Source: Amoebophrya sp. A120
Lineage: Eukaryota; Protista; Dinoflagellata
Direction: 5' to 3'
Length of the DNA stretch: 64,000 bases
NCBI GenBank assembly: GCA_905178155.1
Contig: CAJINV010000007.1
Location: 1,841,151-1,905,150, forward strand
Shown here: one piece after another, positions 1,611 to 62,600 of the stretch
Layout of the letters: each line of letters begins with the position of its first letter
How positions within the stretch are numbered: position 1 is the stretch's first letter
Made by a program: the position numbers and the translations under genes
The notes under the pieces: model-generated
The model's database searches: none
The model's input: the letters and a program-made list of their open reading frames with translations, nothing else
Told to the model about the DNA's origin: nothing

Positions 1611-1662
1611 GCATCACAAGTTTGTTGCAACCTTCCAGATCCAGACACTTTTGCATTCGATA
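1609..1662 (+). mobile_element. Right end of an introner (family B, as 8427-8678) in the GH7 gene
   Basis: cagcatcacaagtt...ttccagatccagacacttttgcattcgata matches cagcatcacaagtttccagacccagacatttttgcatttgata at the end of 8427-8678, and directly abuts GH7 coding sequence. Confidence 0.85.
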
Positions 1663-5368: not shown

Positions 5369-8300
5369 ATGGCGCAGTTTGGTCTCCGTCCGAATATCAT
5401 CCTCCTGCGGGACGGGACGGATAGTTCCCAGGGCAAGCCGCAGATTATCAGCAACATCAATGCGTGCTGTGCGGTCGTGGACATCGTGAAGTCCACACTA
5501 GGTCCCCGCGGCATGGACAAGCTGATGGTGGACGAGGGTGGTGAGGCTTTGGTCACCAACGACGGGGCCACCGTGATGAAGCGACTCAATGTGGTCCACC
5601 CGGCAGCGAAAATTTTGGTGGACATCGCAAAGTCACAAGACATGGAGGTCGGAGATGGAACCACATCGGTGGTCGTGCTGTGCGGTAGGAATTTTTGATC
5701 ATGATCATGATGTAGATTTTTCTACTGCAGTTTTTCGTATCTAATGCTAGCGACTCCACGCATAGCCATTGGCATAAAGCGGTCGTGTCTTTTTGTCATG
5801 CCAATATGCAAGGCTGGATCTCAATCAACAACAAAAATTAGGCGAGTTCCTCCGCGAAGCTAAGACGTTCTTAGAAGACGGCGTCGTGGCTCAAACCATC
5901 ATAAAAGGCTACCGCAAAGCGGCAGAGCTGGCGCTGCAGAAATTGAAGGACATCAGCATCGATTTGTCCACAAAAGACCCGGCAGAAAAGACAAACATGC
6001 TGCGGAAATGCGGTATACTTTTTTGAATGGATTTCTCTTTTTTCGTGTCGCTTCAAATCTCCATCTGGTGCAAAGGTTTTGTTACACTGGCGTGACATGT
6101 AGTAAGTAGCGTTGTGGCGCTCGTTCTGCTGTTAACAGAATCTCCATCCTGCTTTGCTAAATTAATACACAACAGCGGAGACGACCCTGAACTCAAAATT
6201 GGTGGCTGACTACAAGGAATTCTTTTCCGAAATGGTCGTTCGCGCGATCCAGATTCTAGGCGACGACTTGGACTACCGAGGAATCGGAATCAAAAAGGTA
6301 TAAGGTTAAGGAATTTCTGTTGCACCAGATGTTGCCTTTTGCGCAGACCCTGTAAATAAGAAAGAGAACAAGAAGACACCTCCAGAGAAAAAACTTTCAT
6401 GTCAACATCAGGTCACGGGCGGCAGTGTGATGGATTCCACGCTGATCAATGGCGTTGCCTTCAAGAAAACCTTCTCCTACGCCGGCTTCGAGCAGCAGCC
6501 CAAGAGCTTTGTGAAGCCAAAAATCTTACTTTTGAACTTGGAGCTGGAACTGAAGAGCGAAAAGGACAACGCGGAAATCAGAATCGCCGACCCCAGCAAG
6601 TTCCAAGCCATTGTCGACGCGGAATGGAGTATTCATCTGCAGCTTCTTGTTCGTTCAACAGTAGATGTACTACAGTTCTTATCGATCAGCACAAGATGAA
6701 GAGCCAGATCCGATGGCTATGATGCAAGCATAATGTAAGACTAAGATGACGATTGTCTTCCTGTATCGCTATCGTCGTCCTCTACTTCTCCGACCACTAA
6801 AACATTACAATATCCCCACGACAGATATCATCTACGAGAAACTGGACAACATCGCTAAATCCGGTGCCAACGTCGTCCTCTCCAAGCTCGCTATCGGCGA
6901 CCTCGCCACCCAGTACTTCGCCGACCGCGACATTTTCTGCGCCGGCCGGGTCGAGCACGCCGATTTGGACAGGACGAGACGCGCCACAGGGGCGGCTGTC
7001 CAGACGACAGTTACCGCGGGGCTGGACCCGAGCGTCTTGGGATCCTGTGGAAAGTTTGAAGAGGTGCAGATCGGAGCGGAGAGGTAGGATTTGATACATC
7101 GTTTTGTTTGACAGGCTGATGATTCTTTTCCAGCATGATCGTCTTGGTTTTTTCCCAAGTCTTCTGCTAAAAAAATCGGCTACACATCACGCAAATCGTC
7201 TTCGCACGACATCTTCATAGCACAACATCTTCATAGCACAACTTTATTTGTCAACAACATGCTCTATTGATTGCTTGAGCATGTTGATCTTGATACAACA
7301 TCACAGGTGGAACCTCTTCAAAGACTGCGAGAACACAAAGGCCGCAACATTGATTATCCGTGGAGGCGCTCAGCAGTTTGTGGACGAGGCCGAACGATCT
7401 ATCCACGACTCATTTATTATGAATGTGTCAGAGTTGAAATCGACAAAGTTGAAATAATTTGCCATGCATAAAATGGATGCCAGTTGGAGCCCAGTTTTCA
7501 AGTGGCGCATGACAAATTTCGGTGGTCCCTAAATCCAGTCTGTCATGCTGCTTAGGCAAAGAAGAGTGATTTTCTCATGCTACTTTAGCAGCTCGAGCTG
7601 TAACCCCAAACAGGCTTACAATCGGCCTCACTTGCCTGCTCTGCAACACACGTGCCTCGGGTCATGCATTTTATGCATTACAAATTATTTCAACTTTGAC
7701 GATTTCAAACCTGACGCTTCCATATTTATGATCGTGAAGAGCGCGACAAAGAACACCGCGGTAATACTACTTCAGGGTTTAAATTTCAATCTATATTTCT
7801 TTCCGATTATACTTGCGAGCACGGAGTCGGAGCACATGTGGTATGACTATGTATGATCATGATGTTCGTGTTCTTATCTTTGCTGTTTCTAGAGTTTGTC
7901 TTTGTCATGCCACCAGAAAACTTCCACTTATCACAACGAACAGATTGTCGGCGGAGGCGGTGCTATCGAGATGGAGCTTTCCCGCTACCTTCGGGAGTAC
8001 GCGAGGACCGTGCCGGGAAAGCAGCAACGGGTCATCGAGAACTACGCCAGAGCACTGGAAGTCATCCCCAGAACACTCGTCCAGAACAGTGGTAAGCTCT
8101 GGAGATGGTTTTTATTCACTGTTTCTGTCGCACTTAGTTCTAGTTCGTTGCAAAAGCAACATCAAAAAAGGGGCAGGTATTGAAACAAAGATAGAATTTC
8201 TGAATCTGATGCAAAATTTCATGACTTTCCTGCAGCGCCGCAACGAATCAACACAAATCAAATGCATTCTTTTAATCCCCCGCAACGAATCAACACAAAT

Positions 8301-9563
8301 CAAATGCATTCCCATGTTTATTTGATCCCCAGGCGGTGACGCCACGGACGTGATGAACAAGCTCCGACAGAAGCACACGGGCGCTTCCAGCACGGAGTCC
8401 CGGTGGTTTGGCGTGGACTGCATCGATATGAAATGCAAAAATGTCTGGGTCTGGAAGAATGCATGTTTGTCATGCTTGTCTGGCATGACTCTTAAATCTG
8501 TCACGCACGTTGCCCAAGAGCCGCATTTTTCTGTCATGCGGAGACGCAGTTTGTCATGCAGAATAGGCAACACCTACAAGCTCAGAAATTTGTCATGCTG
8601 AGCCAGCACTTGTGGCCTCATCATGAGATGCCACCCAGCATCACAAGTTTCCAGACCCAGACATTTTTGCATTTGATAATCGAGAACGGCGTGAAGGACA
8701 CCCTGGCGAACTTCATCTGGGAGCCGATATGACAGCCTCAGAATGGAAATCCTGAAAGTGGAAATAATTTGTAATGCAAAAAAACGACTCCAGTCGAAGC
8801 ACCATTTCTAGTCGGCGCATGACAAATTTCCCGGGCACTCAAAACGTGTCTGTCATGCTAGTTAGGCAAAGGGGTGCCCGTCTTTCGTGCTAATCAGCAG
8901 CCCAATTCTGAACCCGTAGAAGCACAATAGTCGGCCTCCATTGCGTTCTCTGCAATACAGTCTTTTACTTTTTGGTGTCGCATTTCATGCATCACAAATC
9001 ATTTCCACTTTGAGGATTTCCATTCTGAGGCTTCCATAGCCGACCACCGTGAAGGAAAACGCCATCTACGCCGCGACTGAGGCCTGCAACCTCATCCTCT
9101 CCATCGACGAAACCATCAAGAACCCGCAGTCCGAGCAGCCGAAGGGCGGCAAGGGCAAGGGCGGCGGCTATTACAATGAAAAATGCCCCCACCCCCGAAC
9201 TTGGGAGCATTTGTATTGCAAACCTTTCCAAATGAAACATTCGCCCTCTTGCATCTATCAGCATCACAGGTTTCCAATCGTGAAGAGCAAGAATTTGTCT
9301 TGCAAAAGACCCCAGCAAGAGCGGCGCTTGTCATGCAAGCGATGCGACACACGCCTAGACTCTGCATCAGAAAGATTCATACTCCTTTCATGCATGACAA
9401 AAGGTTTTCATTTGGAAACTTCGCATCACAAATTTTTGCAATTTCAGGGGTGGGGGGCATTTTTCACTGTAATAGCGGCAAGGGCTTCACCAACCAAATG
9501 GCCGGCATGGCACGGGGCGGCAAGGGCAGGGGCATGAAGCAACTGAGGAACACCATGGCGTGA
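5369..9563 (+). CDS. CCT7: T-complex protein 1 subunit eta (chaperonin CCT7), 12 exons: 5369-5684, 5842-6012, 6176-6297, 6412-6628, 6825-7083, 7307-7417, 7730-7760, 7944-8091, 8333-8426, 8684-8727, 9044-9168, 9480-9563
   Basis: [49 protein letters not shown] and [18 protein letters not shown]. Seven GT-AG introns and four introners; the frame is restored at each. Confidence 0.95.
7418..7724 (+). mobile_element. Introner family A (307 bp), TSD TTTAT, in CCT7
   Basis: tatgaatgtgtcag...ctgacgcttccata with about 55-bp imperfect TIRs. Removal gives HDSFMIVK. Confidence 0.93.
8238..8311 (+). repeat. Tandem duplication of about 32 bp (period 42) in a CCT7 intron
   Basis: ccgcaacgaatcaacacaaatcaaatgcattc occurs twice. 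Confidence 0.85.
8427..8678 (+). mobile_element. Introner family B (252 bp), TSD ATCGA, in CCT7
   Basis: tatgaaatgcaaaaatgtctgggtctggaa pairs with ttccagacccagacatttttgcatttgata. Removal gives GVDCIENGV. Confidence 0.93.
8728..9038 (+). mobile_element. Introner, diverged family A relative (311 bp), TSD GCCGA, in CCT7
   Basis: gcctcagaatggaaatcct pairs with aggatttccattctgaggc. Removal gives [11 protein letters not shown]. Confidence 0.93.
9169..9474 (+). mobile_element. Introner family C (306 bp), TSD GCGGC, in CCT7
   Basis: tattacaatgaaaaatgccccc pairs with gggggcatttttcactgtaata. Removal gives GKGGGKGFTNQ. Confidence 0.92.
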
Positions 9564-10838
9564 GGTGTTTCGAGATGATGTTCTTTACGACGCTCTCCTT
9601 TCTTCGCAAAAGTTCTTGCAGTCGAGGTTGTGTGCGTTAATGTCGTGCTTCTGATACAAGAAATCATGTATCGATCAGCTTCAGCACGGAAGTAAAACAG
9701 GTGTATGCTCACTAGCAGCTGCTGCTAGTGCAGCATCAAACACCCAGCAGCCCTTCGCGGACGTACACTAAATAATTGGTGGAACAAGCGGTGGGACGTA
9801 CCTGTGGTCCATGATAATTACAAGCACAACAACTCCATCTGTTTCTGCTGCCGCAGACGGTAGTAGGCCGCACATCTTCAGTCAGCTGAGCTTACGACTT
9901 TTTTCAACAAGAACTCTTGGGAGCAGTACGGCACCAATTTACAATTTGAACTCCTTTTCGAATTTGTCCTAACCTGTTCTTCGAGCGAGTTTTTTAACCG
10001 TGGACGTCTGGTATGGCCTTCAAGTGAACGTCGGGTGTTTTTTATGGACGAAGGAAATCCCAAATCTGTCGCAACCTGCCGGACGAACAACTCTTTGCGT
10101 CGCATACTGACTTCCGTTGTTCTTGTTGATTCTTGATCTTCATCATATTTTTTGTTTTTTTGAATCCATTGCCGTTGCCCGCACTCGTGCTATACGTTTG
10201 TTCTACACCCTGTTTTCAGGAGGTTTTTTTTCGGGACGGCTCTACAATAACAAAGCAAACGGGCGCGAAGTAATTTCCTTTTGAGATCATCCACAAAGCG
10301 CAGTCCCTCAGCTAACACCGAGAACGAGAGAAACAAAACGATGAAGCTGCGTGGGCCTTCGTTTGATGCTATGCTCGATGATGAAGTAGTTACAGTCGAT
10401 CGATGTACGGTCTTTCTAGGATTCAGATTTCGAGCTCGAGGACGACGTTGTAAAGTTTCTGTCTTCTTGATAATTCTCCCCAGGCACTCATCGAAACTTA
10501 GCAAAACAGATTGGATTCTACGCCCCGCCCCCCCTTTTTTCGGATTGATACACTTCGGTTCTATTTTTTATTCCACACAATAATTCATTTCAACCGCAAG
10601 CTCCGCACGAAGATGGAAACTTTTTTGTTTTGTTTTTCGTTCGTGATGATTCTCAGCGATAGAGTTAGTTTGATAGTGATAGCGCGCAAAAATAGAAGTT
10701 CAAGTTTTAGCTGTTCATCCCCATCTGCAAAAAATACGCGTTCTAAATACTACTTACTTTAATAAAAACCACTTCAATTACGAGCCTACTCTCTACTAAG
10801 AACCCCGCTTTGCCTCGCAGAACAAAGCAGTACGAAAA

Positions 10839-13800
10839 ATGGGTTTCGGTCTGCAGTGGGTCCTGTCCGATGAATCGCACTACCGGGAGTTTGTGTGCAA
10901 GATTTGTCTGGACCTGGTCGAACTCCCCGGGACGTACACCAAGTGCTCGCACGTGTTTTGTAACACGTGTCTCCGCCAGTGGGTGCACTCGCTCGCGGAC
11001 ACGAGAAGTAATGCGCCCGGCAACGATCATGATGGGTACTATCTCGACGCTTTCATGGATCACGCAGGAGGGAATGCCTTCGGAAGTGGCGGAGGTTCAT
11101 CCGCGAACGCTTTCTCTTTTTCCCCGCCCTCCGACCGCAGTGGTACTACGCAGACAGTTCCAACGATTCCCTGTCCCGCGTGCAAGGAGCCACTGACCAT
11201 GAACAGAGACCTTTTTGTCTTGCCGAAAAGGGAGCCCTTGGCGAGCCGCTTGCTGAGCAACATCCGGTGTCGATGTCCCTTGGAAAACGGCTGTCCCTGG
11301 CAGGGGGACTACTCGGAACTGCAAGCGCACTTAACAAATCGGGACGCGCACAACGCACCGAGAGCAGGCGGCGGGCTGGAAAATGCTAGTTCTACACCGC
11401 CGACAAAGATGGCGGGTGTCACGACTGGTACTAGTCGTGATAAGATGGACACCATATCAACACAAGAGGACGAAACAGCGCAGGTGACATGCCCCACGGC
11501 ACCAGGAGTGGGCGATACTGACGCCGCAGTATTTTCGACTCGTACCGGCGGCTCGACGAAGCAAGTTTCTGCACCGGGAACAAATGGTAATGGAAGCACT
11601 AACACTCCCACACTACCTGTACCTCCACAAGCCCAAACCCCCTCCATCTCATCTCCAGACTCATCAGACCCGAGTGCTCTGCTGAAAGAGCCCGAGGGCC
11701 TGAAAGAGCTCGGGAACGCCAGGTTCAAAGCCGGTGCCTATCAGGACGCAATACAGCTGTATTCGAAGGCCTTAGCGACACTCCCAGACATAACAAGCTC
11801 GGGCAGTTCATCTCGACCAGGCTCGGCAGCTTCCGGAGGACCAGCGAAGAACACGGGTAATGCTAATAAAACAGCTAGCGCAGCGTCCTCTTCCTCGCGC
11901 GCCGGGGGTTCTTCCCAGTTCATCTTGCCCCCTTCTCCACTCCAACTTGCCACTGAAAGATTGCAGGCCCGCCTGCAAGCCAACCGCGGCGCCTGCTGGA
12001 TGGCGCTCGGCGTGCACAAAAGCGCCGTTGCGGACTGTCAGGAGGCCTGCAAGGCTGACCGCTATTTCGCAAAAGCCTTCGTGCGGCTGGCGTCCGCGAT
12101 GTTTTTGTCGGGATCCAGTGTGCAAGAAGCCATCGCGGTTCTGATGGCAAGAATCGGACAAAACGAGCAAGATAATGTTTCTAACCTCAGCACATGCACA
12201 TCGCAGTCGCACACAAGCACATCAACTCCTTCTCTAGCCACCGCTTCCGAAAAGGACCAATGTCTGAAGGAAATCCGTGCAAAAGTCTCCGAATTCTCCC
12301 TCCTGGCATCCGCGTTGAAAGATGGGCAAGACGCGCTTTCCACCCTGCAAGTTCAGAAATGCGAGCACCTGTTTCAGCGCGCGCACGACCTGGCCGCGAC
12401 CAGCTTCGGCGCGACCCAGGTGCCGCCGGATTTGCAGTTGTGGCTCGCGCGGGCGAAAATCGCGAATGGCAAATCCGACCACGCGAATGGAGTGACCAGG
12501 AGGGTTTTGCGGGGGAACAAGACGAACGCCGAGGCTTTGACGGTGCAATCCACAATATTACTCATCGACGGAGAGACGGAAAAAGCGTTGCAATTATTGA
12601 AGGAAGCGCTCCGGCTCAATCCGGACTTGCAGGAGGCGCAGTTTGTTTTCCGGAAAATCGCGAAACCCTTTTCAAACGCCTTGCAAACCGGGCGGGAATT
12701 CGTGAAAACGCGAGACTTTGCGAAGGCGCTGGACGCCTTCCTCGTTGGGATTGGGTTGGTTCGCGAAAAACTACAAGCGCAGAGAAAGACGAAAGTGAAT
12801 GGTGCACCTACAACTGGTGCAGCTAAGGCTGTGCCAATAAACGGGTCGTGCACAGAGGAAGGACAGCAGGAGACTCCGCTGATTGAGCCAGTGTCTTCAA
12901 TTGCCAGTGGTTGTAGCGGCCAAGAACATCAAACCACTGGGAGGTGGCCCACGTCGACCAAGGATGAATCTAGCGCAATCTTCCCACCTCCGCCTCCGGT
13001 CGACACTCTCGCGAAGGAAGCCGCGGTTGTTCTCGGTTTATCGACCTCTGTGCTCTACGTGCAGCTGCTCTCGGAAGCGGCTACCGCGTCGTTTCGCTTG
13101 AAGCGGTATGACGCAGCGTTGAAATTGTGCAACGACGCGCTCTACGCCCGAGCCGACTACTATGGATGTGTCAGAGTTGAAATCGACAGAGTTGAAATAA
13201 TCTGCCATGCATAAAATGCAAGGCATGCAGTGCCTGTCTTGCCGGGATGGCAAGCGAGGCCGATTGTGAGCCTGTTTAGAGTTTGAAATAGAGCTACTAA
13301 ACTAGCATGATAAAAGCAGTCTCCAGTGCCTAAACAGCATGACAAATTGGATTCCGGTTCTTGGAAAATTTGTCATGCGCCGCTTGATAAGTGGGCTTCC
13401 GACTGGTATCGGTGTGATGCATGACAAACTATTTCAACTTTGACGATTTCGATCCTGACACACCCATAACTACCGCGACGCGATTGTGTTACGGGCAAAC
13501 ACGTTGGTGAACCTGGGTAGGTACCAAGAGGCGGTCCAATCGCTAGAGGGGACCACGCGGTCGATGTTTGAGCACGACGCCCTTGTCCAGCACGCGCACC
13601 AGAAGGCGGTGTTCGAATTGCGCAAATCACAGAGACCGGACTACTACGACGTTTTGAGTAAGCCGTACAAGACGACGCAACAGAGGCCAGCAGCGTGGTC
13701 TTCAAAGCAGGATGGCGACAACAAAGAGGACCAAAGCAGCTCAAACTGCGAAAGCGCAAATAATCCAGTTCCAAACGGTTCGTCAAATTCAGAAGGCGAA

Positions 13801-14280
13801 AATCACGTCACGAATCACGCCCAGAAACGTGTCAAGCGAAACGATTCAGATAATGTGTCGGATCTCGATGAACACAACTCCGAAGCAGAGCCTTGCTCCT
13901 CCCCGAAAAATATGGAACAGGAGCAACAAAAAGCAGAACAAGAAGACGAGCACCAGCAAAACAAGTCCTACTACAAGCTCTCTTCCTTCTCCACCCAATT
14001 TGACATCAAAAACTGCTACAAGCAGCGGTGTTTGGAGCTCCACCCGGATAAACACGCAGGAGAGTCGGAGGCGGATCAGAAAGCGGCGAAAGAACGTTTT
14101 CAGCTGGTCGGGGAGGCATTTGAGATTTTGAACGACGACGCGAAGAGGAAATTATGGGACGAAGGATATGACAAGCAGGCAATTGAGGAGAGATTGCGCA
14201 TGATGAACGAGGCTGCGCACAGGCACTCGGGGTGGGGCAGCCACGGTGGTGGCGGGGGAGGGCATCATCACCACCATTAA
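10839..14280 (+). CDS. RING finger + TPR + DnaJ-domain protein (DNAJC7-like with an N-terminal C3HC4 RING and a TRAF/Sina-type zinc finger); exons 10839-13160, 13474-14280
   Basis: CKIC...CSHVFCNTC...CPAC; CPLENGCPWQG..LQAH; TPR LKELGNARFKAGAYQDAIQLYSKAL; J domain RPDYYDVL...LHPDK...FQLVGEAFEILND..KRKLWD. Confidence 0.88.
13161..13468 (+). mobile_element. Introner family A, inverted-core variant (308 bp), TSD ACTAC
   Basis: tatggatgtgtcagagttgaaatcg...cgatttcgatcctgacacacccata. Removal gives ARADYRDAIVLRA. Confidence 0.93.
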
Positions 14281-28182: not shown

Positions 28183-30151
28183 GTGCGCCACCGAGGGAAC
28201 CCTGATGCTGACAGACGGACCGGATGCGTTAACGTTAGACGCAAAAAGCTTCTCGCCGTCCCGAATGGACCAGTACGCGCCATGGAAAGTGAAGACGACG
28301 GGCCTGTATTTCCTGGCCATCAGTAACTGCGGCGAGACAGACTTCAGCTCCGGAAAGTTTACGTCAGGTACGTAAAAAAGCGTATGCTCATAGTTCTTGA
28401 CGGAGGAAGTGAGTGTCGCTCAAGGAGATCATTAGAGCACCGCTTGGAACGTAAATAGAAGTTGTTGTAATTTGAATTTCGCTCGACCACGATGAAGATT
28501 CTAGTCATACAACACTTCTTGCATCAATTCTGCTCAACTACAGGTGAGATATCAGTTATGACCAAGGCTGGGTATCTGCCAGCAGAAGAAAAGCCGATAT
28601 GAAGACCGAAAACCCATCGAGAAATAATAGAGGTCGCATCAGTTTCAAATCATGATCGACTGTTCACGCTCGTCATTTTCGTGACACACTTCACGCATCG
28701 AAAAGCAAAAGATGCTTCTTTTCTGTCGTACCCAATGAAGCGAAACTGATGCCGAGGAAATAAATTTTCTCCCTTTATTTCGTTTCCATACCAAAAGATG
28801 GCCTTTTACATGTATCTGGCACTGGGTTACGTGGGGTTGCTTTGCTGCTGGGCCGCTTACTGTTGGGCGTGGACAGATGTGCTGTTTTTAATCCATCACT
28901 TCATTTCCTGCGCGCTCATCTGCGGTGCCTTAGAGGTACTTAAAAAAATGACTGCAGTAGAATCTTTGTTTATTTTCACCACAGGCGCGGCGTTATATGC
29001 ATATAGGCTGTATGCAGCTACGACGAATGAACATAAAAGCAATGCATTTACGAGCAGATGAAAATCACGCAATCACACTCACCCCAGGCGACCTGTTGGT
29101 TTACGTCGCTTGCTCATTGGAACTGGACCGGACATCGGTGGTGGTCAATGATCGCGCTGGCAACTTTGGTATTCTGTGCAAAAGTATCGTAGTCGTAGTA
29201 ATCGCAATCATGAATTACAAATCTCCATCCCAAGGTAAAACAGCATGACAAATTTCATTTGGCATGCTGAGTGATGCGATTCATACTAGTACGATGCTTT
29301 TGCAATGCATATTTGGGCACGACGATTAAGCAGGGAGTCTGCTACGCACTGCTCTTGCTGGCCTGTTTGGGCGTAGGAGTGACACAACCGAAACCATCGA
29401 CAAAAACAGTACTTGACTAATTTTAAGTCCAGCATGAAGAACAACAACAACAAGGGAACACCAATTATGATTTATCTTCACAGAGTAATTATAATATATC
29501 CGTCTCGCACCGCGAATTGTAAACAGTAGGCTGGACCTCGTTCTTTCGGGAAAGGGAATTTAGCTTCGGCTTGAACTTGTTCTTGTTCTATCCGCAACTC
29601 CGTCACAACAGTTGATGCAGATTTTCGCACTCACCGTGGCCTTTGTGGTAACTGACACGTACCGGCAGTTCGCGATGGCGGAGCGCAGCACCGTCGGGTC
29701 GGACATGACCACTTTCTCCACCGTGCTCGTCGTCGCACCTGGTTCGTTCTTCGTGTCCTGTCTCTACGTCTGGATCCTCCAAGCCCTCCAAGAGACCATT
29801 TCCGAGCTGAACTCCACAAAACAAATCGTGAAGGCGGAACTCTACCGGTACCTGCGGCTCGCACTCGGGAGTGTTTGCGCGGTGGTCATCGCGTTGGTCG
29901 CGTACGAAACGGCGGTGGTCAGGCAGACAGATTTGTCCCAGAACTGGGACAGCAGGTGGATCTTCACCGACGCGGCCTCGCACTGCATGTTCTTCTTTCT
30001 CAGCATGGTGTTGATGTACCTGTGGCGCCCGAACGAAACCTCGCAGCAAATCGCGTACTCGCAGCAAATCGGGGACGACGACGGGATTGAGTTGGGCAAC
30101 CGAATGGACATGGACTTGGACGAAGAAGAGGGGGTTTCCACTTTGGAATAA
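28183..30151 (+). CDS. TMEM87/GPR107-like (lung seven-TM receptor, GOST family) protein; 5' exons lie upstream and are unresolved
   Basis: VKTTGLYFLAISNC, GYLPAEEKPKMAFY, IHHFI, YALLLLACLGVGVTQP, WILQALQETI..L...KQIVKAELYR and MYLWRPNETSQQIAYSQQI. Confidence 0.85.
28598..28790 (+). mobile_element. Decayed introner (193 bp) with degenerate TSD (GCCGA/CCAAA)
   Basis: tatgaagaccgaaa...tttcgtttccata with an internal IR gcatcagtttc/gaaactgatgc. Removing the element plus 5 nt gives AEEKPKMAFY in frame. Confidence 0.75.
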
Positions 30152-37300: not shown

Positions 37301-39529
37301 GGAACTTCTACAACAGCAGCGACGACCCGTGGAGCTGCATCCGCAGCGACGACTTCCACTGTTCAACAACAGGAGCCAGGAGAAATGACGATGAAAAACG
37401 CCAGCAAACCCCCCGGAATAATTATTCCGAAACTGGCACTAAGTGCTATTTCCGGTTCCGCCTCTATTCCTGTGCCTGGAGTGAAGGTGAAGCCGTTGGC
37501 TCCACTAAAACAAAGAGACGACGGGTCATCTACAGCTTGTGATCGGCCTGCTGCTGTAATGACAACCAGCGCCAGAGCGGCTTCCAGCTCCAAATCAAAG
37601 TCCAACACCAGTGCCTTGCTTTCCGTCCCGAGCTCCCCCTTCCTGATCACCCCGCTCGTGATGCCACGGGTAACCGGAGTGAGCTTGGTGCCGAAAGTAA
37701 GTAGAACGAAGTCTGTTTCTCGGAGTATCCCCTCCAGTAGAGTGGGAAGTAAAGATATCCTGAGAAAAAAGCGTTACAGTTACACATTGTGTTGCTGGCC
37801 AAGCAAGACAGACAAGCTCTGTCATGCCGGACATGCATAGGGGCCTCGTTTCATACGTGTTTTCCCATAGGATTTCTGCATTACATACAAACTTTCTCTC
37901 TCATGCAGAGAAATTCGTGTAGTTGCTGAATTCACTACAAATGTGTAACTGTAACACTTTTTTCGTGGGATAAAAGAGAAAGTGAAAGGAACTAAAGAAA
38001 TCACAGGGTTGAAAAAGACGTCGACAACCGCAGCAACTGCTTCTGCGGGGCAGCACCAGCAGCAGCACGACGAAGTTGATCTCGCAGAGAAGTACAGCGC
38101 TACCCTCGCGACGAAAGACAAAGAAGAAGAGACCCAGAAGATAAAAGTCTTCCGGAACTACGGGATCAAAAACCGGAAAGGGGTTCAACAGAATAAAGCA
38201 GCAGCTGAAGTGGAAAAAGTACACCAGTCCCATCAAGCTGCAGAACAAGAGCCGACAAATGCCGAAAAAGAAGACCTTCCTTCCCCAACGCCGGATGAGT
38301 TCCACGATCCAATCATTCTGCGCGACAAAGCTCTGCTGGCGCTCCTGCCGAAGCCGGTGCCTGTCACGGAGAATTCACGGAGCCCCATGGGCGGGGGTCG
38401 TCAAACAGGCGAACAATCGGCGAAACAGCAGCGAGGTACCACGACAGGTGGAAATAGTAGAAACGCAGGCTCAACTACAACACCAAATCGAAATGCCGTC
38501 GTGTCCACCTCAAAGCTGAATCAGTACAGCAACAGGCGTACGAACATCCCATCTTCGGACACGAGCAGCAAAACCGGTGCAGCAGGAGAGCCTGCTCAAC
38601 TATTGCACTACGACTCGTCTCCTTCTGACTTCATCCCGGTAGCAAGACTGGTGGAACTTGTTCCGCGGGGGGATGACGGCGGTGCCTCTGCGCAGGTATG
38701 AGAGTGCGTAAAACCTCCTGTTCCGCCACCCCACCTCCCCTTCTTCATATGAATGAACTTCCTTGAAGAGCATAAACAGGAACTGAGAGACACCAGCGAA
38801 CCACCTAAAGCCATCCAGCCTGCCGGCATGCTGGTAAGTTCATGCGCGGAGTGCAGTGCATGTGCAACTGTTTCTTCTTGTGCTCCCTCCACCGAGATTT
38901 ACGATGCAAACAGTTCCACAAGGCAGCATACTGGATTTGGGACTTCGTAAGTATGACAAATGAGGGGGCGGGGCGACGAGTTGTAGTTCTTGCGCACTCT
39001 CATAGCAGGAGGACGAGCTTAACACGGAATTTGACTCCAAGTACTCCGTCCCATCAAAGGACGCAAATGGTAGAGAGGAGCAAACTGCCATCGGCAATTT
39101 TCACTTGTTCTATCCGTCTTCTGTCGCGGGAACTGGTGGAGCAGGAGCTGCAAGTCCGTCCGCAAGACAGAAGAAGTCTCTGAACTCCAGTATGACCTCC
39201 TCAGGTGTTGCATCTCTGTGATGCAAGAAGTGCAATATCATTACGCATGGCAATATCAATACGCATGACAAGTTGTGGAGTGCCAAACTGCATTCGAGGA
39301 ATCCGGCGAGACTTGTATTGTAGAAAGTGGAACGCGCCGTGCCCGTGTGGCAGCTCGTCTCCTGCTGATCATGCAAGAGAAACACAAAATCCAGTTACTC
39401 TGTTGTAGTAACGCTTGAGATTTATCACTTGAGAAGGTTATATCTAGCGTGGCGCTCGATATCACAGAAGATTCCATCGCGAACATGCCGCTGCGAGACT
39501 TGAGTCACAACGACCGGGAGCAGCAGTAA
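31361..39529 (+). CDS. Large unknown low-complexity/coiled-coil protein (over 2000 aa) interrupted by three introners and several ordinary introns; ends approximate
   Basis: ORFs at 31984, 33407, 34235 and 37982 join in frame after removing the elements at 33242, 33984 and 37756. Short flanking exons near 31361-31555, 31712-31790 and 38914-39529. Confidence 0.7.
33242..33555 (+). mobile_element. Introner family A, inverted-core variant (314 bp), TSD CAAAG
   Basis: tatggatgcgtcagagttgaaatcg...cgatttcaatcctgacgcttccata. Removal gives TSTKEVISAE. Confidence 0.93.
33984..34140 (-). mobile_element. Introner family D (157 bp), reverse orientation, TSD GCTCT
   Basis: The reverse complement aligns to 42520-42667 and 55747-55891. 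Removal gives RELLSAAHRR, in frame with ORF 34235. Confidence 0.9.
37756..37972 (+). mobile_element. Introner family E (217 bp), TSD AAAGA
   Basis: tatcctgagaaaaaagcgttacagttacacatt pairs with aatgtgtaactgtaacacttttttcgtgggata. Removal gives GSKEKVKGT. Confidence 0.92.
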
Positions 39530-40743: not shown

Positions 40744-43700
40744 ATGTCTTGTCCCACCACCATGAGCAATAAACAAGTTGCAGCGGAGCAGGTGGAGGTT
40801 CCTAACAGAACCGCAAGAAGTTCCACGGCGACAACGCCCAACTCCACGGCGATCCGAGACCAGGAGCAGGAGGGCGGTAGTGCCTTCTACCCGGCGCACC
40901 ACCTACTGCAACATCACAAGTCGGAAGCCAAAAAGGCCCGGGTTCTCCGGAAAGACCCGTACCTTGGCCGCAACGTGAGGCGCACGGACCGGAAACGGTA
41001 CTCGGACCTGTTTTTGGAGGCCCAGGCACAGACGCAACACGCGACGTCTACAGGGGAGAGTCTTTTAAAAAATCACCCGAACGACAAGAAGGGCGATAAT
41101 TTTCTCCAGTTCCCCGTCGTCACTATCGAGGACCCTGAGACGGGGACCAAGCTCAGCCCCCGCTCGGCGCGCGGTCAGCACCTCTCCGCCGAGCAGATCT
41201 ACCATCAGAACTGCGTGAAGGAAACCAAAAAGCAGAAGAACAGACTTCTGAACCGCAGCTTGAGCCCGTCGAGTCTCGCCGGGAGCCCGTTCGTCAGCCC
41301 GCGGTCCATGTCGACGTCCGGTTTGGGGCTTGCAGTTTCTGGCGCACCTCATACCACGTCCTCTATCGGCACCAATCAATACCCAGACTTGCAAGTGCTA
41401 CCGCGTCGCCGGATTTACCGCAAGGACCCCTTTCTGGGGCGGGACGTGCGAAAATCCGATCACAAGCCGTACGTCGAGTTGTTCCGCGAGTGTAAGGAGA
41501 AAAATCGTTTGACGCTCGGCGCAAAACTGTCGAAACAGTTCCTGCAGAACGGACCGGTCGTGTGCACTGGCGGGGATGGAATGAGTTCTGCGAGCGTCAT
41601 GTCTGCTACCGCTCGTCCAGCTGTTGTTCCGCGCAGAATGAGGAGTGAGCCGGCGGGGAACAAACTAAATGTGAAAAATGCCTCTTCTAAAAAACCGGTA
41701 CTGTTGAAACTGAACAAGGCGGCAGTTGTGGCTACGAAGGCAGATAACGCCAAGAGTAGAAGTGCAAAGATGGAACAAGAACGCCCCCAACACAGCACGA
41801 ACTACACCAGCGAACAACAAAACGATGCGGCACTTCTAGATCAGCAGCTGCACTCGCTACCCTCGACTCAATTTGCAACTCCGCGCGGGGGACTACAACA
41901 GCCGCTGGAGCTGCCGCCTGCTGAGACGCAGTTCTTCACGTATTTGTCCGATCTCCACACCACTACCAGCACGACCACAAGCGCGACGAAACACGACCGC
42001 CCGCTGCCCTTCTCTCATGGTGCGGAACAAGGTGGACTCGTCGCACAAGATCCTCAACGAGAAGAAGCAGAGGACGGCGACCAGGTTCGGCTCGCGAGCC
42101 AAGCCAGCACGACGCTTCTCGAGGATGGTATCAACAAGACCACCAGCACCATTAGCACCTATTCCATGGCGAAGACGAACTCCATGAACCGCACAACTAC
42201 GTCGTCGACTGCTGGCAGTCCTTCCAAGTTCATCATGAAGGAGGCCGAGGCTCTATTTACGACGTCGGCTATTGATGAAATTATGGAGGAGAAGTACGGG
42301 CACGTCGCCAGCAGCAACCGGGACTCGGACGACTGGGTCGTGTTGGAACTGGAAGACTGCGCGGGGGCCACTGCTGGAGCAGAAAACTACGATGTCGAGC
42401 AGATGTTTTTGGCAGGCTTTCTCCGGGACGAAAGCGAAAAGCACGCCCGTCTCCTCGAAGAGGAGCAAGCGGCCATGGTGTTGGAAGATCAGGACGCGGG
42501 CGTTTTCGTGCCGGTCCTCTATGAACTGCAAAAGTAGCGTACTCGTATAAATGCATTACAAATCTTCTCAGCATGAGAAAAAAAATTTGTAATGCGGATT
42601 TGACTTGACAAAAAGATTTGTAATGCATGATTGCAATACGAGGAGTGCGATACTTTTGCAGTTCATGTCCTCGACCGCCAGAACAAAATTTACGACAAAG
42701 ATTTCAACCTTCCTTCCGTTAACATCCAGCCGGTGCCGGTGAAGATGAATTTGGACTTGCATCCACAACCTTCGCAGAAGCTTTTCTCCCCCTTGAAGCA
42801 GCACAAGGCAAGCACATCTCCGACCGTAAAGCATCTCCGGGCCGTTCAGGGAACGACGGTCTTCGACTACCAGCCGATTGCGCGGAAAAACCACTCTACG
42901 CAAAGTGGCGCTGTGGTTCCGCCTGTTTCACCGGTCGTGACTGTAGGTGGGAACAAGATGAACAAAGACAGCTCGTCTGGTTGGCTGGACCAGGAGAGCG
43001 TCTCCTTGAGCTCACCAATGGCGAAGAGACAGGGAAATGAAAATAGCCAGTCCGCTGGAAGAGTGGTGACGAACAAAAAAAGTAAAAAGCTGATGCAACA
43101 AGCTAAAGCAAATCTAAATGTAAACAGTTCTTCGAAAGACCAACAGCAACAGCAGTCTCATCAACACCATCAACTTGGGCGTCGGTACGACAGTGTGGAG
43201 GACGAGATGAAAACTGAAGTCATTGACTTGATCGGGTTGGAGCAGAAGGATGCGATCCCTGCCACGCTCTCCGCAGAGAAGCTTTTTGAAGAAAATTTCC
43301 ATCAACACCAAATGGAAAAGACTGATACCCCACATTTCGGGAGCGATAATGGTGCTGACATGGTAGCCGTAGCAAATCGCGCAGCGGCAGCAACTGCAGC
43401 AGCAGGAAATAACGGAGATATTAAACTACCGCAATACAAGTCCAACACCGCACAGCTCCTTTCCTCCTACGGCTTGCCGGTCGAGCCGCACGAATTGCCG
43501 TCGGCCGGGGCAGCCAGGATGCAGATGCTGACTAGCAAGAAGGGGACATCAACTACGCCTGATCATGGGCAGCTCCTACTTCCCGCGCCGGTGCCGGTGA
43601 TTGGTGCAAGCAATGTGCTGACTTCGGCCGCCTCATTCTGCACAGTGATGCCGACGACTACATTAGCATCGGCACATCAACATGATCAACAAACTTCCAG

Positions 43701-51568: not shown

Positions 51569-51595
51569 TTGTAGTTGCGGCCAGCATCGTGCGTC

Positions 51596-54056: not shown

Positions 54057-54920
54057 ACGAAGTACTTAGTGTTCTCGATGCTTAGCGATAGAAGTATATT
54101 TTCAGTTTGGGTTAGGTTTTGCAGTTTTGGAAAAGGGCTGTAGCTGAGTACTCACATTTTGGTGGAAAGAGACAAAACTTGCGTGTAACAATGCTGAAGA
54201 TCGTAGCTGCTTTTGTGCTACAGTACTTATGTTGAAGAGCTCCACAACGCCGCCACGTCTGGGCGCCTAGCGAAATAAAGCAGATATTGTGTGCAAATGA
54301 ATACGAAATCGAAAACAAGTCTCCGCATACAACAACTAAGTTAAAGCGTAGCGGATTGCAGCGAAGAGCACGAGGCAGTCTCTTCCTCATACAAACTGCA
54401 TTCTTTTCTTTCTGGGAGGCGTGAATCTGCCGCATGTGTCCTTGCTGCTTGTGCTTGCGGTGCTGTGACATAATTCTGTGGTCGCGAGGGCGAGGATTTT
54501 TTTTTCCGTTTTTTGATTCATCCTGAGCGATGAGACTGGAGAATGGGGCAATGGGATGGCCCTACAAGTCAGAGATGGCAGTAGAGGGACGAGAGAGCCG
54601 ACTGAAACTGATGGCGCAGCAGTAATACACGTACCTGATGAACTACCAGGACAAACGGATTATTTATGTCGTGTGCAAGACTGCAGTGGTCACTAGTCAC
54701 TTTTTAACAAGCAACTCGACCACGAGCCGTCAAGAATACAACCGGTTTGTCTTTGTTTGAGCACCACGATATTCATAAATAAGCAGCAGCTTTTCTATAT
54801 TTCAGTTTCTGTTTCTAATGAGTGAGTTGCATGAACAGAAACAGTAGCACCAGAACATTCACTTTTACACAGATGATACTTTGTTCCGCGAAGTAGAACT
54901 ACACGTGAAAAAATAAGAAA

Positions 54921-56693
54921 ATGCATTCTGACGAGCAGGACCGTCTTCGGCCAGACGAGGCAGAGGACCAAGACTCTTGCGTTGAGGTAACCCTTCGCGA
55001 GGACAGCGAGAATGAGGCCGGGGGCGGGTATTCTGGCGGCGACCCGTTTCTGAATGAACAAAAGGCCGCAGGGGAGCAAAATTATCGACAGGGGTCATCT
55101 AGCAGGACAATCACCTTCACTGCGGAGGATGTAGACGAGATTTTTGCGACAAAAAGCGAAGAGGGAAACAAGTCCAGCGACGGTGCGCAGGCGAAGTTTC
55201 TGGAGCAATTTAAAAATATTGCAGGAAGCGGAACTAGTGGGAGGGACGAGGCACGACGGCCCGTGGGGAGGCCAACCTTTCCAAACAGTGAGGCGCCAAT
55301 CGGTGCTACAGCCGTCGCGACACTCAAGAATTCTGGTGGAGCTGCTGGACAGAGCGGCGGAGAAGAAGACGAGCAATCTACAGAGGTCACTGATATGGAT
55401 GTGTCAGAGTTGAAATCGACAAAGTTGAAATAATTTGCCATGCATAAAATGGATGCCAGTTGGAACCCAGTTTCCAAGTGGCGCATGACAAATTTCGGCG
55501 GTCGCTAAATCCAGTTTGTCATGCTGTTTAGGCAAAGAAGAGCGATTCTCTCATGCTACTTTAGCAGCTCGAGCTTTAACCCCAAACAGGCTTACAATGG
55601 GCCTCACTTGCCTGCTCTGCAACGCACGTACCTCGGGTCATGCATTTTATGCATAACAAATTACTTCAACTCTGACGATTTCAAACCTGACGCTTCCATA
55701 ACTGATGTCGTCCCAATAGAGTACCAGCTCTGCGAGTTTTGCTGCATATGAACTGCAAAAGTATCGTACTCGTATAAATGCATTACAAATTTCATCAGCA
55801 TGAAAAATAAGATTTGTAATGCTGATTTGCCTTCAGACAAAAAAAATGCAAGACTTGCATTTATACGAGTGCGATACTTTTGCACAGGATACTGCAAAGT
55901 GGAAAGCAAATCACCGAGCCCAACTTTCTCGAGCCGATTGGTGCTCATCCAGACGTCGCAAACAGACACTGGCGCTACGGGCGGCGGGGATTCAAATTAC
56001 CACACGGGAGGAGACGAACACCAACAAGAAAACGGGCAGCAGGAGGGGCAAGAAAGATTTCAGGTGGAGGAGGACACCTACACGTACACCTCCGCTCCAT
56101 TCGTGGACAAATGTGGCGGCGCCGGGGGTCGTGGGGGGAGACAGCAGGACGGCGAGAAACATCAAGGAGTGGGAGAACAAAACAGCTACCACGACAGTCT
56201 TGGAGGTTATCATGTCAAAGACCATGATCAAATCCTCGCGAAGACGCGGACAAAACCGGCGACCGCCAGCACGCTGCTGACCGCAACTCCTGGGCCCAAC
56301 TTCGCAAAAACCGTGTGCACGTTCTGCGAGAAGCCCATCTGTCTGGATTGCATCCGGAGTTTCCGGTGCAATCACCCGCTGGACTGCTGTTTTCCGAGCC
56401 GGCGATGGACAACCAACAGTTACTGCGACCGCTGCTTCATCGCGGAGCGGGAACGGAGGATACGAAGACACACCACGACCATGCGCACACCGGCGACCGC
56501 AGATAGCTACATGCGCAGCTCCGTGCACGTCGCGACCGGAAAACATTTGCGGTCACCTGCGTCGAGCAAGGAGAGGTCGAGCAAGGAGAGGAAAAGCAAG
56601 GAGCGGGTCGCACGACCGGCGCAACCGCAATCACTGCAAGAACTGGAGACAACCACGGAGGTTGGTGTCACGGCACCGGCCAATCGCGTGTAG
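54921..56693 (+). CDS. Unknown protein with a Cys-rich zinc-binding region; exons 54921-55393, 55706-55746, 55897-56693
   Basis: The frame is continuous after removing two introners. Contains CEFC...CTFCEKPICLDC...CDRC. Confidence 0.75.
55394..55700 (+). mobile_element. Introner family A (307 bp), TSD ACTGA
   Basis: Colinear with 7418-7724, about 16 substitutions by eye. Removal gives TEVTDVVPIE. Confidence 0.94.
55747..55891 (+). mobile_element. Introner family D (145 bp), TSD CTGCA
   Basis: tatgaactgcaaaagtatcgtactcgtataaatgca pairs with tgcatttatacgagtgcgatacttttgcacaggata. Removal gives EFCCKVES. Confidence 0.93.
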
Positions 56694-59675: not shown

Positions 59676-62600
59676 ATGACAGGCTCTATTGAAGAGACCA
59701 GCACGAGTGGCAGTGTCAAGGCGACCTCTGCCGGGTTACATCAGATCGAAAGTTGCACCGCTGGTGGTGGAGCACAGCAGAACTCCTCCGAGACGGTGAT
59801 GACGTCCCATGGAGACGCTGAACAGAAGCACCCGAACACGGATTCTTCGTCTGTCAACAAGAACTCAAGCATGACGAGCTGCAACAGTCTCACGGTCGTC
59901 GCAACGCCGAGCGCTGCGGCAGCCAACAACGCGAATGCGTGTCCTCAGCTCAAGAATATGATGCATTTGACCCCTCCTGCTGGTGCGGCAGGAAATACAA
60001 ATAGTTTTAATCTCCCACTTCGCCTACCCTCCATGATGGGTAGCTCACCAAAGTCATCCTCCGTGGCCAACAGTGCTGGCTCTTTGACATGTGCACCTCC
60101 AAATGGTGGAGCAGATGGTGGCGCGCCGCATGCAGAGCAGCAGCGACAAATGAATTTGAATTTCAACAATTCGCTACTCTCCCTTGTGCCGCCCTCTACG
60201 ACCTCCACCTCGCAGCATCAGCCACTACAGTCCTTCATCACGGCCGCACAGCTACCATCCACTCAGTCCATAATTTCATCGGAGCAGACCGGGATGAACA
60301 ACAACAATCCCTTATTTGCTGCATTCGGTGGCGGATTTGGTCTTGCTGGAGGTGACCCTACTCTTCAGCAACAGTTGATATTTGCGGGAACATCAAACTG
60401 TGGTGCGGGCGGAGTTGCCCAAGTAGAATCCGCTTCGGCACCAGCCTCAGGTTCATCGTCTTCCGGTCTCAGCGACCATGGTCATCTTGGGCAGCAACAA
60501 CTTTCAAGCGGAACTATCGACCAGATGATGTCGGCAAACTCCATGATTTCGGCGAGTTCGTCTTTAACCGCAGGTGCTCCTGGTCCACATGAACACCAGC
60601 TCTTCGTTTCTACCACCTCCTCTGCGTCGATCGGTCCCCCCCTGGTTTCTGCGAATTCTGTGGAAGAAGTAGATGTTCCGCGTCCCTCGAGCTCCACCCC
60701 CTCAGTGGATTTGTTCAACCTTGTTGCCGGCGTAGTTGGCTCAGCTACAACAACTTCGCAGCTGCAAACGACCCCGGGCGAACAACAGCAGCAACAGCAA
60801 CAGCAAATGACGTCGCAGCAATTCCAGCAGATTCAGGAGAGTCAAATGGAAACGCAGAAGCTGCTCGAACGCTGCAACGTGATCAGTTCCAACACGAACC
60901 ATTTGACTGGCGGCGGGGATCATCCGATGAGCAGGAGTGCGTGCGTGGTGACTGAGGTGCACCAGAAAAACCAGAACAGTGGGAGTGGTTGTGCTAGCTC
61001 GGCCGCAGGAGCTGCAGAACTGTCAGGAGGACGCGCCGCGACTGACGCTGCCAGCATCGCGATAAAGGTAGGTGGAGGGGGGCCTCAAAACAGCAACTCT
61101 CTTAGCAAGAAGAATGACCAGGCCCAGGCGGGAGGTAGTACAACAACTAGCACAGCAGGCACTACATCACAACAACAGACGAACCCGCACATCACAAAAA
61201 AACCGCCGCAGCCGCCCCCTCCGGTACCGACGCCCCCGCCCGCGAACTATGCTACTTTCAACTTGCACAATTTGAACTTCGGATCATCTTCTACCGGAAA
61301 TAACCCTAGTAACTTCGGAGGTGGAACTGCTGGTCCTCTTGCACCTACATCCTTCTTGCCACCGCCGCCGATGCCGCCCCTGCCGAATCAAAACATCAAT
61401 ATGATGGGCGCAGCATCGTGTAATAACCCAACTGCGCCGCAGCTGATGAACAACAACAATGAGCTTATGCTCCTGCGAAACAACACCACAGGTAGTGCCG
61501 GATCTATCGGCTCGTCTAACATGGTCACCGTCACACCTTCGCCCGGCGCTGGCGCAATGATGAACAACAAGGGCGCCTCCAGTGATATCAACTTTCTTCC
61601 GGGACACCAGCCCGTTTATGGGGCAGGTCAGAATAACTTGGGTGGCGGTGGAACTGGAACTTCAACTACACTAAACAATGCGGCCAACTACGTCGCAAGT
61701 AATGTACCTACTCCGCCCCCGCCTCCCGTTCTTGTTCCCCAGCAGCTTCACCTCTATCGAAGAAAAAAATTGTGTTAGTGTAACTTTCTTTGGCCGACAG
61801 CATCACAAACTTGCTCTACATAACAGATAAAACCTGTCACGCGTGGCTTGTAAGGGAAAACGCACAGCAGGAGCGGAGGACTTCATGGCTGTCTGGCATG
61901 TTGACAGGCGCGACTCTGTTGCGAGTTTCTGCATTACAGAGTTACACTTAGACAGATTTTTTCTTGCATAACCTCGACCTTGTAGGCAACAGCATGATGC
62001 TGAACCCGCAACAGTTAAACTGTTCATCTTCAATGTCGCAGTTTCTCCTACCGTATCAAATGCAGCATCAAACTGGCACCAGTGCTGCGCCAGCGAGTAG
62101 TACTAATATGTTGAATCCAAACGGCGCCACTGGGGGCGTTTTTCTTGGAGGTGCAGGAGCAGGTGGTGTTGTGGCCGCTCCTTTCTCGCAACAGCAGCAG
62201 CTACAGCAGCAACAGCCTCTGGCGTCCTCGACATCGTGCGACGGAGCTGCAGCACCAGCGTTCATGATGAATAACAATAACCCAAACCCTACTCAACAAC
62301 AGCAACAGCAATCTGCGGATAACCTTCGGGAATTTGCGATGTCCTTCAATTCCTCGACCTCGGCCGGGGGATTTGGGAACTCCCCGGGCTTCTCGCCCTG
62401 CTTCGTTGCGCAGCCGCAGCTGCAGCAGCCCGGCGGATCAGGAGCAGGGGGAAGCTGCCTGAAGGGAGTGGTCGGAAACGAAAACATGTCTGCTGGCGGT
62501 GGGGTCGTTCCGTTGTCGAGCGGAGATGTTGGAGGCGCGGCGTTTACAGCAACGGGTGGTGCACCAGGCTGCACGAATTTCGTTGCGCCGGGGGCGCAGT

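Follow-up and report, generated by a model that had tools for sequence, protein, structure and literature searches.

Introner copies in a 64-kb window of Amoebophrya sp. A120 are removed from RNA together with five flanking bases

A 64,000-nt window of the genome of the dinoflagellate Amoebophrya sp. A120 (contig CAJINV010000007.1; the window is the whole stretch analysed) carries 16 short inverted-repeat elements within its genes. Judged by sequence and layout, these are the introner elements that Farhat et al. described in 2021 from the same strain (PMC7789003), a system that is already known. RNA contigs that also lack ordinary GT-AG introns skip the element plus five bases at eight of the ten elements whose joints could be seen, and DNA contigs keep the elements. 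Of the two routes that a first, sequence-only reading of this DNA had offered, a second splicing route acting on RNA and precise excision from DNA, the contigs support removal at the RNA level. Mobile elements lie in the exons of an essential gene and are removed exactly without GT-AG signals; this was published in 2021, and the question of mechanism is the same as it was then. Our reading, which is tentative and held with somewhat less than even confidence, is that these published introner copies are cut at positions likely set by their ends and by the hairpin that the ends would form, probably in a spliceosomal core that does not read GT-AG. Elements are named by the position of their first base, and all element counts refer to this window.

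The RNA evidence consists of contigs assembled from runs of the same strain, with 31 letters as the rule for bridging. The label “RNA” for runs X4 to X7 is a guess, and their spliced nature is judged from missing introns: because their contigs lack GT-AG introns that the contigs of run X1 keep, we take X4 to X7 to be spliced transcripts. Run X1 behaves as genomic DNA, with introns present and a depth that is flat at ~25-31 across unique sequence. Runs X4 to X7 derive from one sample and are therefore not independent libraries. Contig joints were examined over positions 1-20000 and 28001-48000, and explicit RNA joints were found at eight of the 16 elements (positions are the bases on either side of the skipped stretch):

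7411>7724, element 7418: 312 nt skipped (307 + 5), in an X4 contig of depth 151; X1 depth 0
8421>8679, element 8427: 257 nt skipped (252 + 5), in an X4 contig; X1 depth 0
28596>28795, element 28598: 198 nt skipped (193 + 5), one ambiguous base; four of four runs
29164>29312, element 29170: 147 nt skipped (142 + 5); four of four runs
37750>37973, element 37756: 222 nt skipped (217 + 5); two of four runs
38691>39005, element 38697: 313 nt skipped (308 + 5), marked GT..AG; two of four runs
39188>39446, element 39191: 257 nt skipped (252 + 5), two ambiguous bases; one of four runs
42513>42667, element 42520: 153 nt skipped (148 + 5); two of four runs

The sequence-only reading had proposed the mapping of RNA junctions as its check, and the mapping returned transcripts without the elements and with joints that are exact to the element plus five. 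This gives an independent, joint-by-joint confirmation in one window. Among the 15 joints listed of the 102 on 1-20000, those for 8728, 9169 and 13161 do not appear; the removal of 8728 and 9169 is supported by the identity of the joined translation with protein P0001 (see below), and at 13161 an X4 contig piece begins at 13469, one base beyond the element end. For 33242 and 33984, none of the X4 to X7 contigs over 28001-48000 was seen to bridge the element. A joint at 33277>33372, within 33242, had a side of 20 in a single run; it seems to belong to another copy and was rejected.

All 13 element start positions given by the sequence-only reading proved real, as judged by an inverted-partner script and a repeat finder, and three further elements (29170, 38697 and 39191) bring the total to 16. 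The script recovered 11 of the 13 with TAT...ATA ends and an exact 5-bp duplication, with arm matches of 15-19 out of 20, except 12/20 at 33984; the repeat finder reported arms of 29-62 nt, 80-97% complementary, in 12 elements. Every element starts with TAT (TATG in 12, TATC or TATT in the others) and 15 of the 16 end in ATA. The 5-bp target-site duplication is perfect in 14, has one mismatch in 39191 and is decayed in 28598. The earlier description of TAT...ATA ends plus a 5-bp duplication in all 13 thus stands for most of them, but 28598 has lost its duplication and 42520 ends in ATG. Four duplications (TTTAT, ACTAC, TCCTC and ACCTC) are free of G, as had been stated. The elements are non-coding, 142-314 nt long, and occupy 3,883 bases of the window:

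7418..7724, family A, 307 nt, TTTAT on both sides; arms 62 nt, 85% complementary; fold z -10.0; RNA joint
8427..8678, 252 nt, ATCGA; arms 30 nt, 97% complementary; four TGTCATG motifs in the same direction; RNA joint
8728..9038, family A, 311 nt, GCCGA; arms 56 nt, 88% complementary; CCT7 protein identity on removal
9169..9474, 306 nt, GCGGC; in the Gly/Lys-rich tail of CCT7; CCT7 protein identity on removal
13161..13468, family A, reverse, 308 nt, ACTAC; in a RING/TPR/DnaJ gene; restored plus-strand open reading frame (ORF)
28598..28790, 193 nt, an old copy with GCCGA / CCAAA (decayed) and decayed arms; in a GOST_TM gene; RNA joint
29170..29311, family B, 142 nt, TTTGG; previously unlisted; RNA joint
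33242..33555, family A, reverse, 314 nt, CAAAG; ORF only
33984..34140, family B, 157 nt, GCTCT; weak terminal stem; ORF only
37756..37972, 217 nt, AAAGA; RNA joint
38697..39004, 308 nt, GCAGG; GT..AG register; previously unlisted; RNA joint
39191..39442, 252 nt, TCCAG / TCTAG; stem flush; previously unlisted; RNA joint
42520..42667, family B, reverse, 148 nt, TCCTC; ends in ATG; RNA joint and restored plus-strand ORF
55394..55700, family A, 307 nt, 94.8% identical to 7418, ACTGA; ORF only
55747..55891, family B, reverse, 145 nt, CTGCA; ORF only
61755..61970, 216 nt, ACCTC; ORF only

Two scans set this catalogue against background. An exact 5-bp duplication with at least 12 of 16 arm matches occurs 22 times in the window versus 1-10 times in ten Markov-shuffled windows; 12 of the 22 correspond to elements, another is 9169 in shifted form, and the remaining nine lie exactly at the threshold. 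When TAT..ATA ends and at least 14 of 20 arm matches were required and the flanks were left free, there were 23 matches, of which 13 have zero or one mismatch in the duplication and are all elements; the other ten have three to five mismatches.

The estimate of at least five families was borne out by BLAST. Family A has five copies, with 7418, 55394 and 8728 in one direction and 13161 and 33242 in the opposite one, and family B has four, with 29170 and 33984 opposed to 42520 and 55747. Both orientations of family B are removed from plus-strand transcripts (29170 and 42520). The restored reading frames all lie on the plus strand, so all host genes do as well, and both element orientations therefore occur in transcripts. 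Summed X1 contig depth in bins that hold elements ranges from 2,877 to 196,714 against ~27 for unique DNA, a figure that is not a copy number. An A-run at the place “TAT, 7 nt, at least 3 A” was seen by eye in ~10 of the 16 elements and is missing in family A and 39191. Between 7418 and 55394 there are 4 differences in 110 arm columns versus 12 in 197 interior columns, too few to tell the two apart.

An 8-mer, GCATGACA, recurs across families. Together with its complement it occurs 27 times in the window, 21 of them within elements (5.4 per kb versus 0.10 per kb elsewhere), and it lies inside 10 of the 16 elements (for example at 7508-7515 and 7541-7548), which represent at least six families unrelated by BLAST. 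In family A, two copies are predicted to pair as an internal 8-bp hairpin that is kept in five of five copies, and element 8427 has four copies, all in one direction. The string does not occur in the main text of PMC7789003; supplementary Figs S19-S25 of that paper may already show it or the repeat positions. A common internal motif may mark a shared mobilising or processing factor.

The clearest setting for the elements is a chaperonin gene, described as follows:

5909..9565, plus strand, 3' part of the CCT7 gene (TCP-1 eta), with six GT-AG introns and four elements

The exon at 6827-7081 is 100% identical to P0001, a 573-residue Amoebophrya sp. A120 protein with PF00118 that is encoded on a 4.65-Mb contig, and the named relatives of P0001 are T-complex protein 1 subunit eta. 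The earlier placement of four elements in the essential CCT7 gene is therefore correct. The X4 contig has GT..AG joints at 6011>6175, 6295>6410, 6628>6825, 7081>7305, 7759>7943 and 8090>8332. When these six introns and the four elements, each with five further bases, are removed, the remainder is an open frame whose translation matches residues 129-573 of P0001 exactly; the public gene model thus already treats the four elements as introns. Three of the junctions align without gaps with seven homologues (HDSF|MIVK at 7418, GVDCIE|NGV, and IWEP|TTVKE at 8728), and HDSF|MIVK, which 7418 splits, is a conserved motif. The fourth junction falls in a Gly/Lys-rich tail. Ordinary introns do coexist with the elements, as the sequence-only reading had it, with these six in CCT7 and three more in the gene at 28183-30769. 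All nine are of the form GTA...CAG, and three begin with GTAT. Within CCT7 introns we also saw, by eye, short tandem duplications of ~16 nt and ~38 nt (7190-7240 and 8236-8310), and the intron at 7761-7943 has one TGTCATG motif at 7903.

That excision of an element plus one copy of the duplication restores the frame held for all 15 elements tested. Outside CCT7, the restored frames are:

10800-14278, plus strand, holding 13161
31984-39219, plus strand, holding four elements, including 33242 and 33984
40606-44389, plus strand, holding 42520
54909-56691, plus strand, holding 55394 and 55747
59604-64000, plus strand, holding 61755

Pfam names a RING/TPR/DnaJ protein around 13161 and GOST_TM in the exon adjoining 28598, in the gene that also holds 29170. 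Eight of the 12 ORF pieces had no Pfam match, and most host genes are unnamed.

The claim that the elements have no GT/GC..AG register holds for all 13 listed before, in each of the six registers through which the boundaries can slide. Among all 16, U2-type GT/GC...AG ends are absent from every register in 15, and the one exception is 38697, whose GCAGG duplication creates GT..AG in register 1. The ends show no preference in any of the registers, and there is none at the 3' cut. The length removed is always the element plus five bases, even where the duplication has decayed. At 28598, where no repeat is left, the first intron base is either the first base of the element or the one preceding it, and the intron correspondingly extends 5 or 4 nt beyond the element's end, which fixes the register at 0 or 1. 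At 39191 the C of the upstream duplication copy is still present in the mRNA, leaving registers 0-2. From these two cases, which agree, we infer that the mRNA retains the upstream copy of the duplication and that the downstream copy is lost with the intron. Since the offsets hold at 28598 without a repeat, it is the element, and not the identity of the repeats, that sets where the cut falls. A position rule that can be tested follows: the upstream copy remains, and the cuts lie at 0 or -1 and at +5 or +4.

The predicted structures separate the elements from their neighbours. In 13 of 15 elements, 15 or more of 30 end-to-end pairs are formed in the minimum-energy fold (z between -2.1 and -11.3); in the sixteenth, 39191, the stem is flush with the ends and the arm duplex has -32.6 kcal/mol. 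An end-to-end fold is thus predicted for 14 of the 16. The weak cases are 28598, which has 0 of 30 mirror pairs, a z of -2.7 and an arm duplex of -12 kcal/mol and retains TATG...CATA, and 33984, with 9 of 30 mirror pairs and a z of -1.7. The nine GT-AG introns have no end-to-end pairs and z values of -0.9 to +2.1. Two sharply different intron classes exist within the same genes. The proposal that removal is guided by structure stands in part: the folding of 14 of 16 elements, as opposed to none of the nine GT-AG introns, supports a link of removal to structure but does not prove it.

The five copies of family A share a predicted terminal stem of ~48 pairs, in which 8 of 95 predicted pairs are changed on both sides; for family B the figure is 1 of 33. 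Such covariation was rejected as evidence on splicing, being inseparable from transposase constraint on the master copies. Orientation was likewise set aside as a test of structure against sequence, since mirror-image arms give the same ends either way. A bulge-helix-bulge geometry was not found: in seven of the 15 folds none of the five flanking bases on either side is paired and the stem begins at element base 1, and in the remaining folds only short chance pairs reach into the flanks. An Rfam scan of the window gave no matches.

These features correspond closely to what is published for this strain. Farhat et al. (PMC7789003) reported 66,565 RNA-backed introns in A120, more than 60% of them non-canonical, and 29,850 repeated introns that make up 17% of the assembly and fall into 1,954 families. 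Their introners have inverted repeats of 8-20 nt that form a hairpin and direct repeats of 3-5 nt at the boundaries; in A120 the inverted repeat reads TAT, 7 nt and at least 3 A, and in strain A25 the terminal triplet is TTA. The same repeat layout was found in 15% of canonical A120 introns. Nearly all spliceosomal proteins were identified, and that paper reports that U1 snRNA was not detected and that no transposase was found in A120. A 2026 review (PMC12787238) mentions a U1-70K homologue in strain A25, and Gozashti et al. 2025 (PMC12130899) assigned A120 introners to several transposon classes. RNA removal, non-GT-AG borders, an inverted repeat with predicted hairpin, a direct repeat, a TAT start and the division into many families are all seen here in the same strain, and nothing essential differs. 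The sequence-only reading was right that introners are known in Amoebophrya and that the excision mechanism is open, and the accessible literature, including reviews of 2024 and 2026, gives no resolved mechanism. Our additions are modest: a duplication of exactly 5 bp in 14 of the 16 elements, retention of the upstream copy in two cases, removal of one family in both orientations, the GCATGACA motif and an empty paralogous site. The terminal inverted repeats and fixed-length target-site duplication are those of miniature inverted-repeat transposable elements (MITEs), and at 142-314 nt the elements cannot hold a transposase.

Under our tentative reading, the 5' cut would coincide with the first element base or precede it by 1 nt, and the 3' cut would lie 5 (or 4) nt beyond the last, with the paired ends bringing the two cut sites together. 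Catalysis would be by the spliceosomal core, an assignment that we hold only slightly above a separate nuclease-plus-ligase route, and the elements would spread as non-autonomous DNA transposons. We lean to the spliceosomal core because 38697, with GT..AG in register 1, is cut at the same offsets as the other elements, and because the repeat layout is shared by 15% of canonical A120 introns (PMC7789003), compared with the ~1 in 64 that we compute for random duplications. The nearly complete spliceosomal protein set in PMC7789003 points the same way, as do the U1-70K homologue of A25 (PMC12787238) and the spliceosomal handling of most non-GT/AG introns in Fritillaria (bioRxiv 2025.08.15.670264).

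Several points weigh against this reading. It is difficult to see how a spliceosomal active site would cope with introns whose first or last base varies. Farhat et al. favour a mechanism separate from the standard splicing machinery (PMC7789003), and the authors of work on Euglena make the same case for the introns of that organism (PMC12501133). Element 28598 is correctly removed in four of four runs despite its decayed terminal stem, so that removal outlasts most of the hairpin, and the fold of 33984 is weak as well. Removal may therefore do without a flush hairpin, and the short TATG...CATA ends may be enough, whether read as sequence or paired in a 4-bp helix. Inverted ends are required for transposition anyway, and the arms and the 8 of 95 compensatory pairs are therefore no proof of a role in splicing. 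The fold z-scores come from mononucleotide shuffles, 30 per sequence, which is a weakness. The register rests on two elements (28598 and 39191). Five elements (33242, 33984, 55394, 55747 and 61755) have ORF evidence only, and 13161 has a contig piece only.

An alternative that we consider doubtful, though deserving of weight, is that a structure-reading endonuclease and an RNA ligase, independent of the spliceosome, would remove the elements, with the intron leaving as a circle or a linear piece and no lariat. It would fit offsets that are fixed to the element ends whatever the boundary letters or the survival of the repeat, and the presence in the same genes of two separate classes, GTA...CAG without a hairpin versus a hairpin without a consensus. 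The Euglena code also cuts at fixed unequal spacers round a terminal helix, N3...N5-6, and its authors propose non-spliceosomal factors and circular products (PMC12501133). Against it, the predicted folds leave the flanks unpaired and thus lack a bulge-helix-bulge geometry, and 28598 is removed despite the decay of its terminal stem. To our knowledge there is no candidate enzyme, which also counts against it. An enzyme with fixed offsets would imply one duplication length, whereas the direct repeats of Farhat et al. span 3-5 nt (PMC7789003), and the excess of canonical-register elements far above 1 in 64 suggests that the spliceosome acts on such elements. A broad version of the idea is also somewhat unlikely in our judgement: a spliceosome-independent hairpin machine would remove ~2/3 of Amoebophrya introns by cutting flush at the 5' foot and 5 nt past the 3' foot and then ligating. 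Were it true, the rule would be convergent with the unequal-spacer code of Euglena, and any inverted-repeat transposon that makes 5-bp duplications would be harmless in exons and free to spread.

We regard as improbable a relaxed spliceosome that reads short end signals, UAUG at the 5' end and a U-run followed by CAUA at the 3' end, with the hairpin as a by-product of the transposon. All 16 elements do start with TAT and 15 end in ATA, and in register 1 the UAU of the element occupies positions +2 to +4 of a GUAU-type donor, a start shared by three of the nine canonical introns. The left-arm A-run of ~10 of the 16 elements yields a U-run 10-20 nt before the 3' cut, which fits the pattern in PMC7789003. 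Mirrored arms would let such signals work in both orientations, and 28598, whose other arm sequence has decayed, retains TATG...CATA and is still removed. If the arms pair, however, the U-run is locked in the stem; family A and 39191 have no A-run; and there is no preference at the 3' cut. The difference in terminal triplet between A120 (TAT) and A25 (TTA; PMC7789003) fits a transposase signature better than a splicing signal.

Precise excision from DNA, as with the internal eliminated sequences (IESs) of ciliates, had been offered by the sequence-only reading and is not supported; that clean transcripts derive from excised copies is very improbable. Ciliate IESs resemble the A120 elements as short, transposon-derived inserts in coding sequence bounded by a short direct repeat that survives in one copy, but they leave the somatic DNA, whereas the A120 elements are kept in DNA contigs and are missing only from RNA contigs. 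The depth of X1 across the flanks is flat at ~25-31, and zero-mismatch X1 contigs extend 25-29 nt from the unique flanks into element ends (7698-8267, 9447-13185 and 13440-20000, entering the ends at 7698, 9447, 13185 and 13440); these overlaps are shorter than the 31-letter rule and are thus supportive, not strict. Neither the 7411>7724 nor the 8421>8679 joint has any depth in X1. Contig assemblies lose rare variants, which leaves room for a small excised fraction, but DNA-level excision is excluded as the main route at these loci.

The search for empty sites in DNA, also suggested by the sequence-only reading, did yield one, in X1, and it belongs to a paralogue. In this contig 7417 is followed directly by 7730 and the GT-AG intron at 7082-7304 is still present (carrying three substitutions and an insertion of 3 nt), which taken alone would favour excision from DNA. 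Its variants at sites 6503, 6509, 6523 and 6857 match residues of P0002, a 302-residue A120 protein encoded on another, 3.96-Mb contig, and a 4-nt duplication after 7746 accounts for the frameshifted tail of P0002. P0002 is 97.6% identical to CCT7 (6803-7794) over 248 residues and represents a partial, frameshifted paralogue. The empty site is therefore at a different locus and was rejected as a case of DNA excision. In this one case the GT-AG intron is kept, the 7418 element is missing and a single TTTAT is present; the simplest reading of these sequences is that 7418 inserted after the duplication of CCT7, with precise loss as a less simple alternative. The paralogue also seems to read into an 8728-like element.

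That the elements are retained in mRNA, either in pseudogenes or with the joints arising as reverse-transcriptase jumps between direct repeats, deserves hardly any credence: direct repeats flanking a stable hairpin are a classic setting for template switching and the four RNA runs come from one sample, but 28598 shares one base at its joint and is still skipped in four of four runs, the spliced CCT7 contig is the deep one (151) and aligns without gaps with homologues at its junctions, and removal restores ORFs of up to ~6 kb over four elements, which dead genes would not keep.

Comparable introns exist in unrelated lineages. The nonconventional introns of euglenids are alike in their variable borders, terminal pairing, repeats that resemble target-site duplications, suspected MITE origin and GT-AG neighbours (PMC12501133, PMC11282704), and in having cut sites at fixed unequal spacers from a terminal helix (PMC12501133). 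The signature in Euglena is N3-CAG...CTG-N5-6 followed by a purine, whereas the A120 helix runs from base 1 (UAU...AUA) with spacers of 0-1 and 5-4. The general euglenid form, N3-CDG...CHG-N5-6 plus purine, was not found here, and no element has CAG at +4 to +6. Circles have been shown for Euglena introns.

In Fritillaria borealis, introns derived from MITEs likewise have inverted repeats, escape GT-AG and outnumber canonical introns (bioRxiv 2025.08.15.670264). They prefer the ends AG-AC and AG-AT, and the spliceosome is implicated in their removal; the A120 elements have no end preference in any register. Inverted-repeat transposons whose target-site duplications create introns are also found as canonical introners in other dinoflagellates and algae, and A120 is among the species listed (PMC12130899). 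Those families were curated on largely consistent and mostly canonical splice sites, whereas 15 of our 16 elements lack GT/GC..AG. The elements of this window share with both systems an origin that would lie in transposons. Earlier accounts of such introns are reportedly those of Henriet et al. 2019, on the MITE-derived non-canonical introns of F. borealis, and of Gozashti et al. 2022 and Roy et al. 2023, on canonical introners of other dinoflagellates and algae.

Two raw RNA runs, X13 (260 reads) and X14 (2 reads), gave no reads on exons of the window; all their reads fall on 8728-9030, at 95-99% identity. Though they bear the same species label, these runs probably come from another strain and are uninformative on splicing here. 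The X13 reads that match 8728-9030 run on into flanks that are exactly reverse-complementary to each other, as if an 8728-like copy sat within a longer inverted-repeat element of that strain.

Inverted repeats also occur outside the elements. A nested palindrome of ~1.07 kb lies between genes at 24986-26058; it has outer arms of 94 nt with 99% complementarity and several inner pairs of arms. It ends in GAGCGGGG...CCCCGCTC, with no flanking duplication seen, and an ORF within it has no Pfam match. Two short, near-perfect palindromes rich in G and C, at 46284-46337 and 48113-48172, have the common core CCGGCGGATAAGCCGG.

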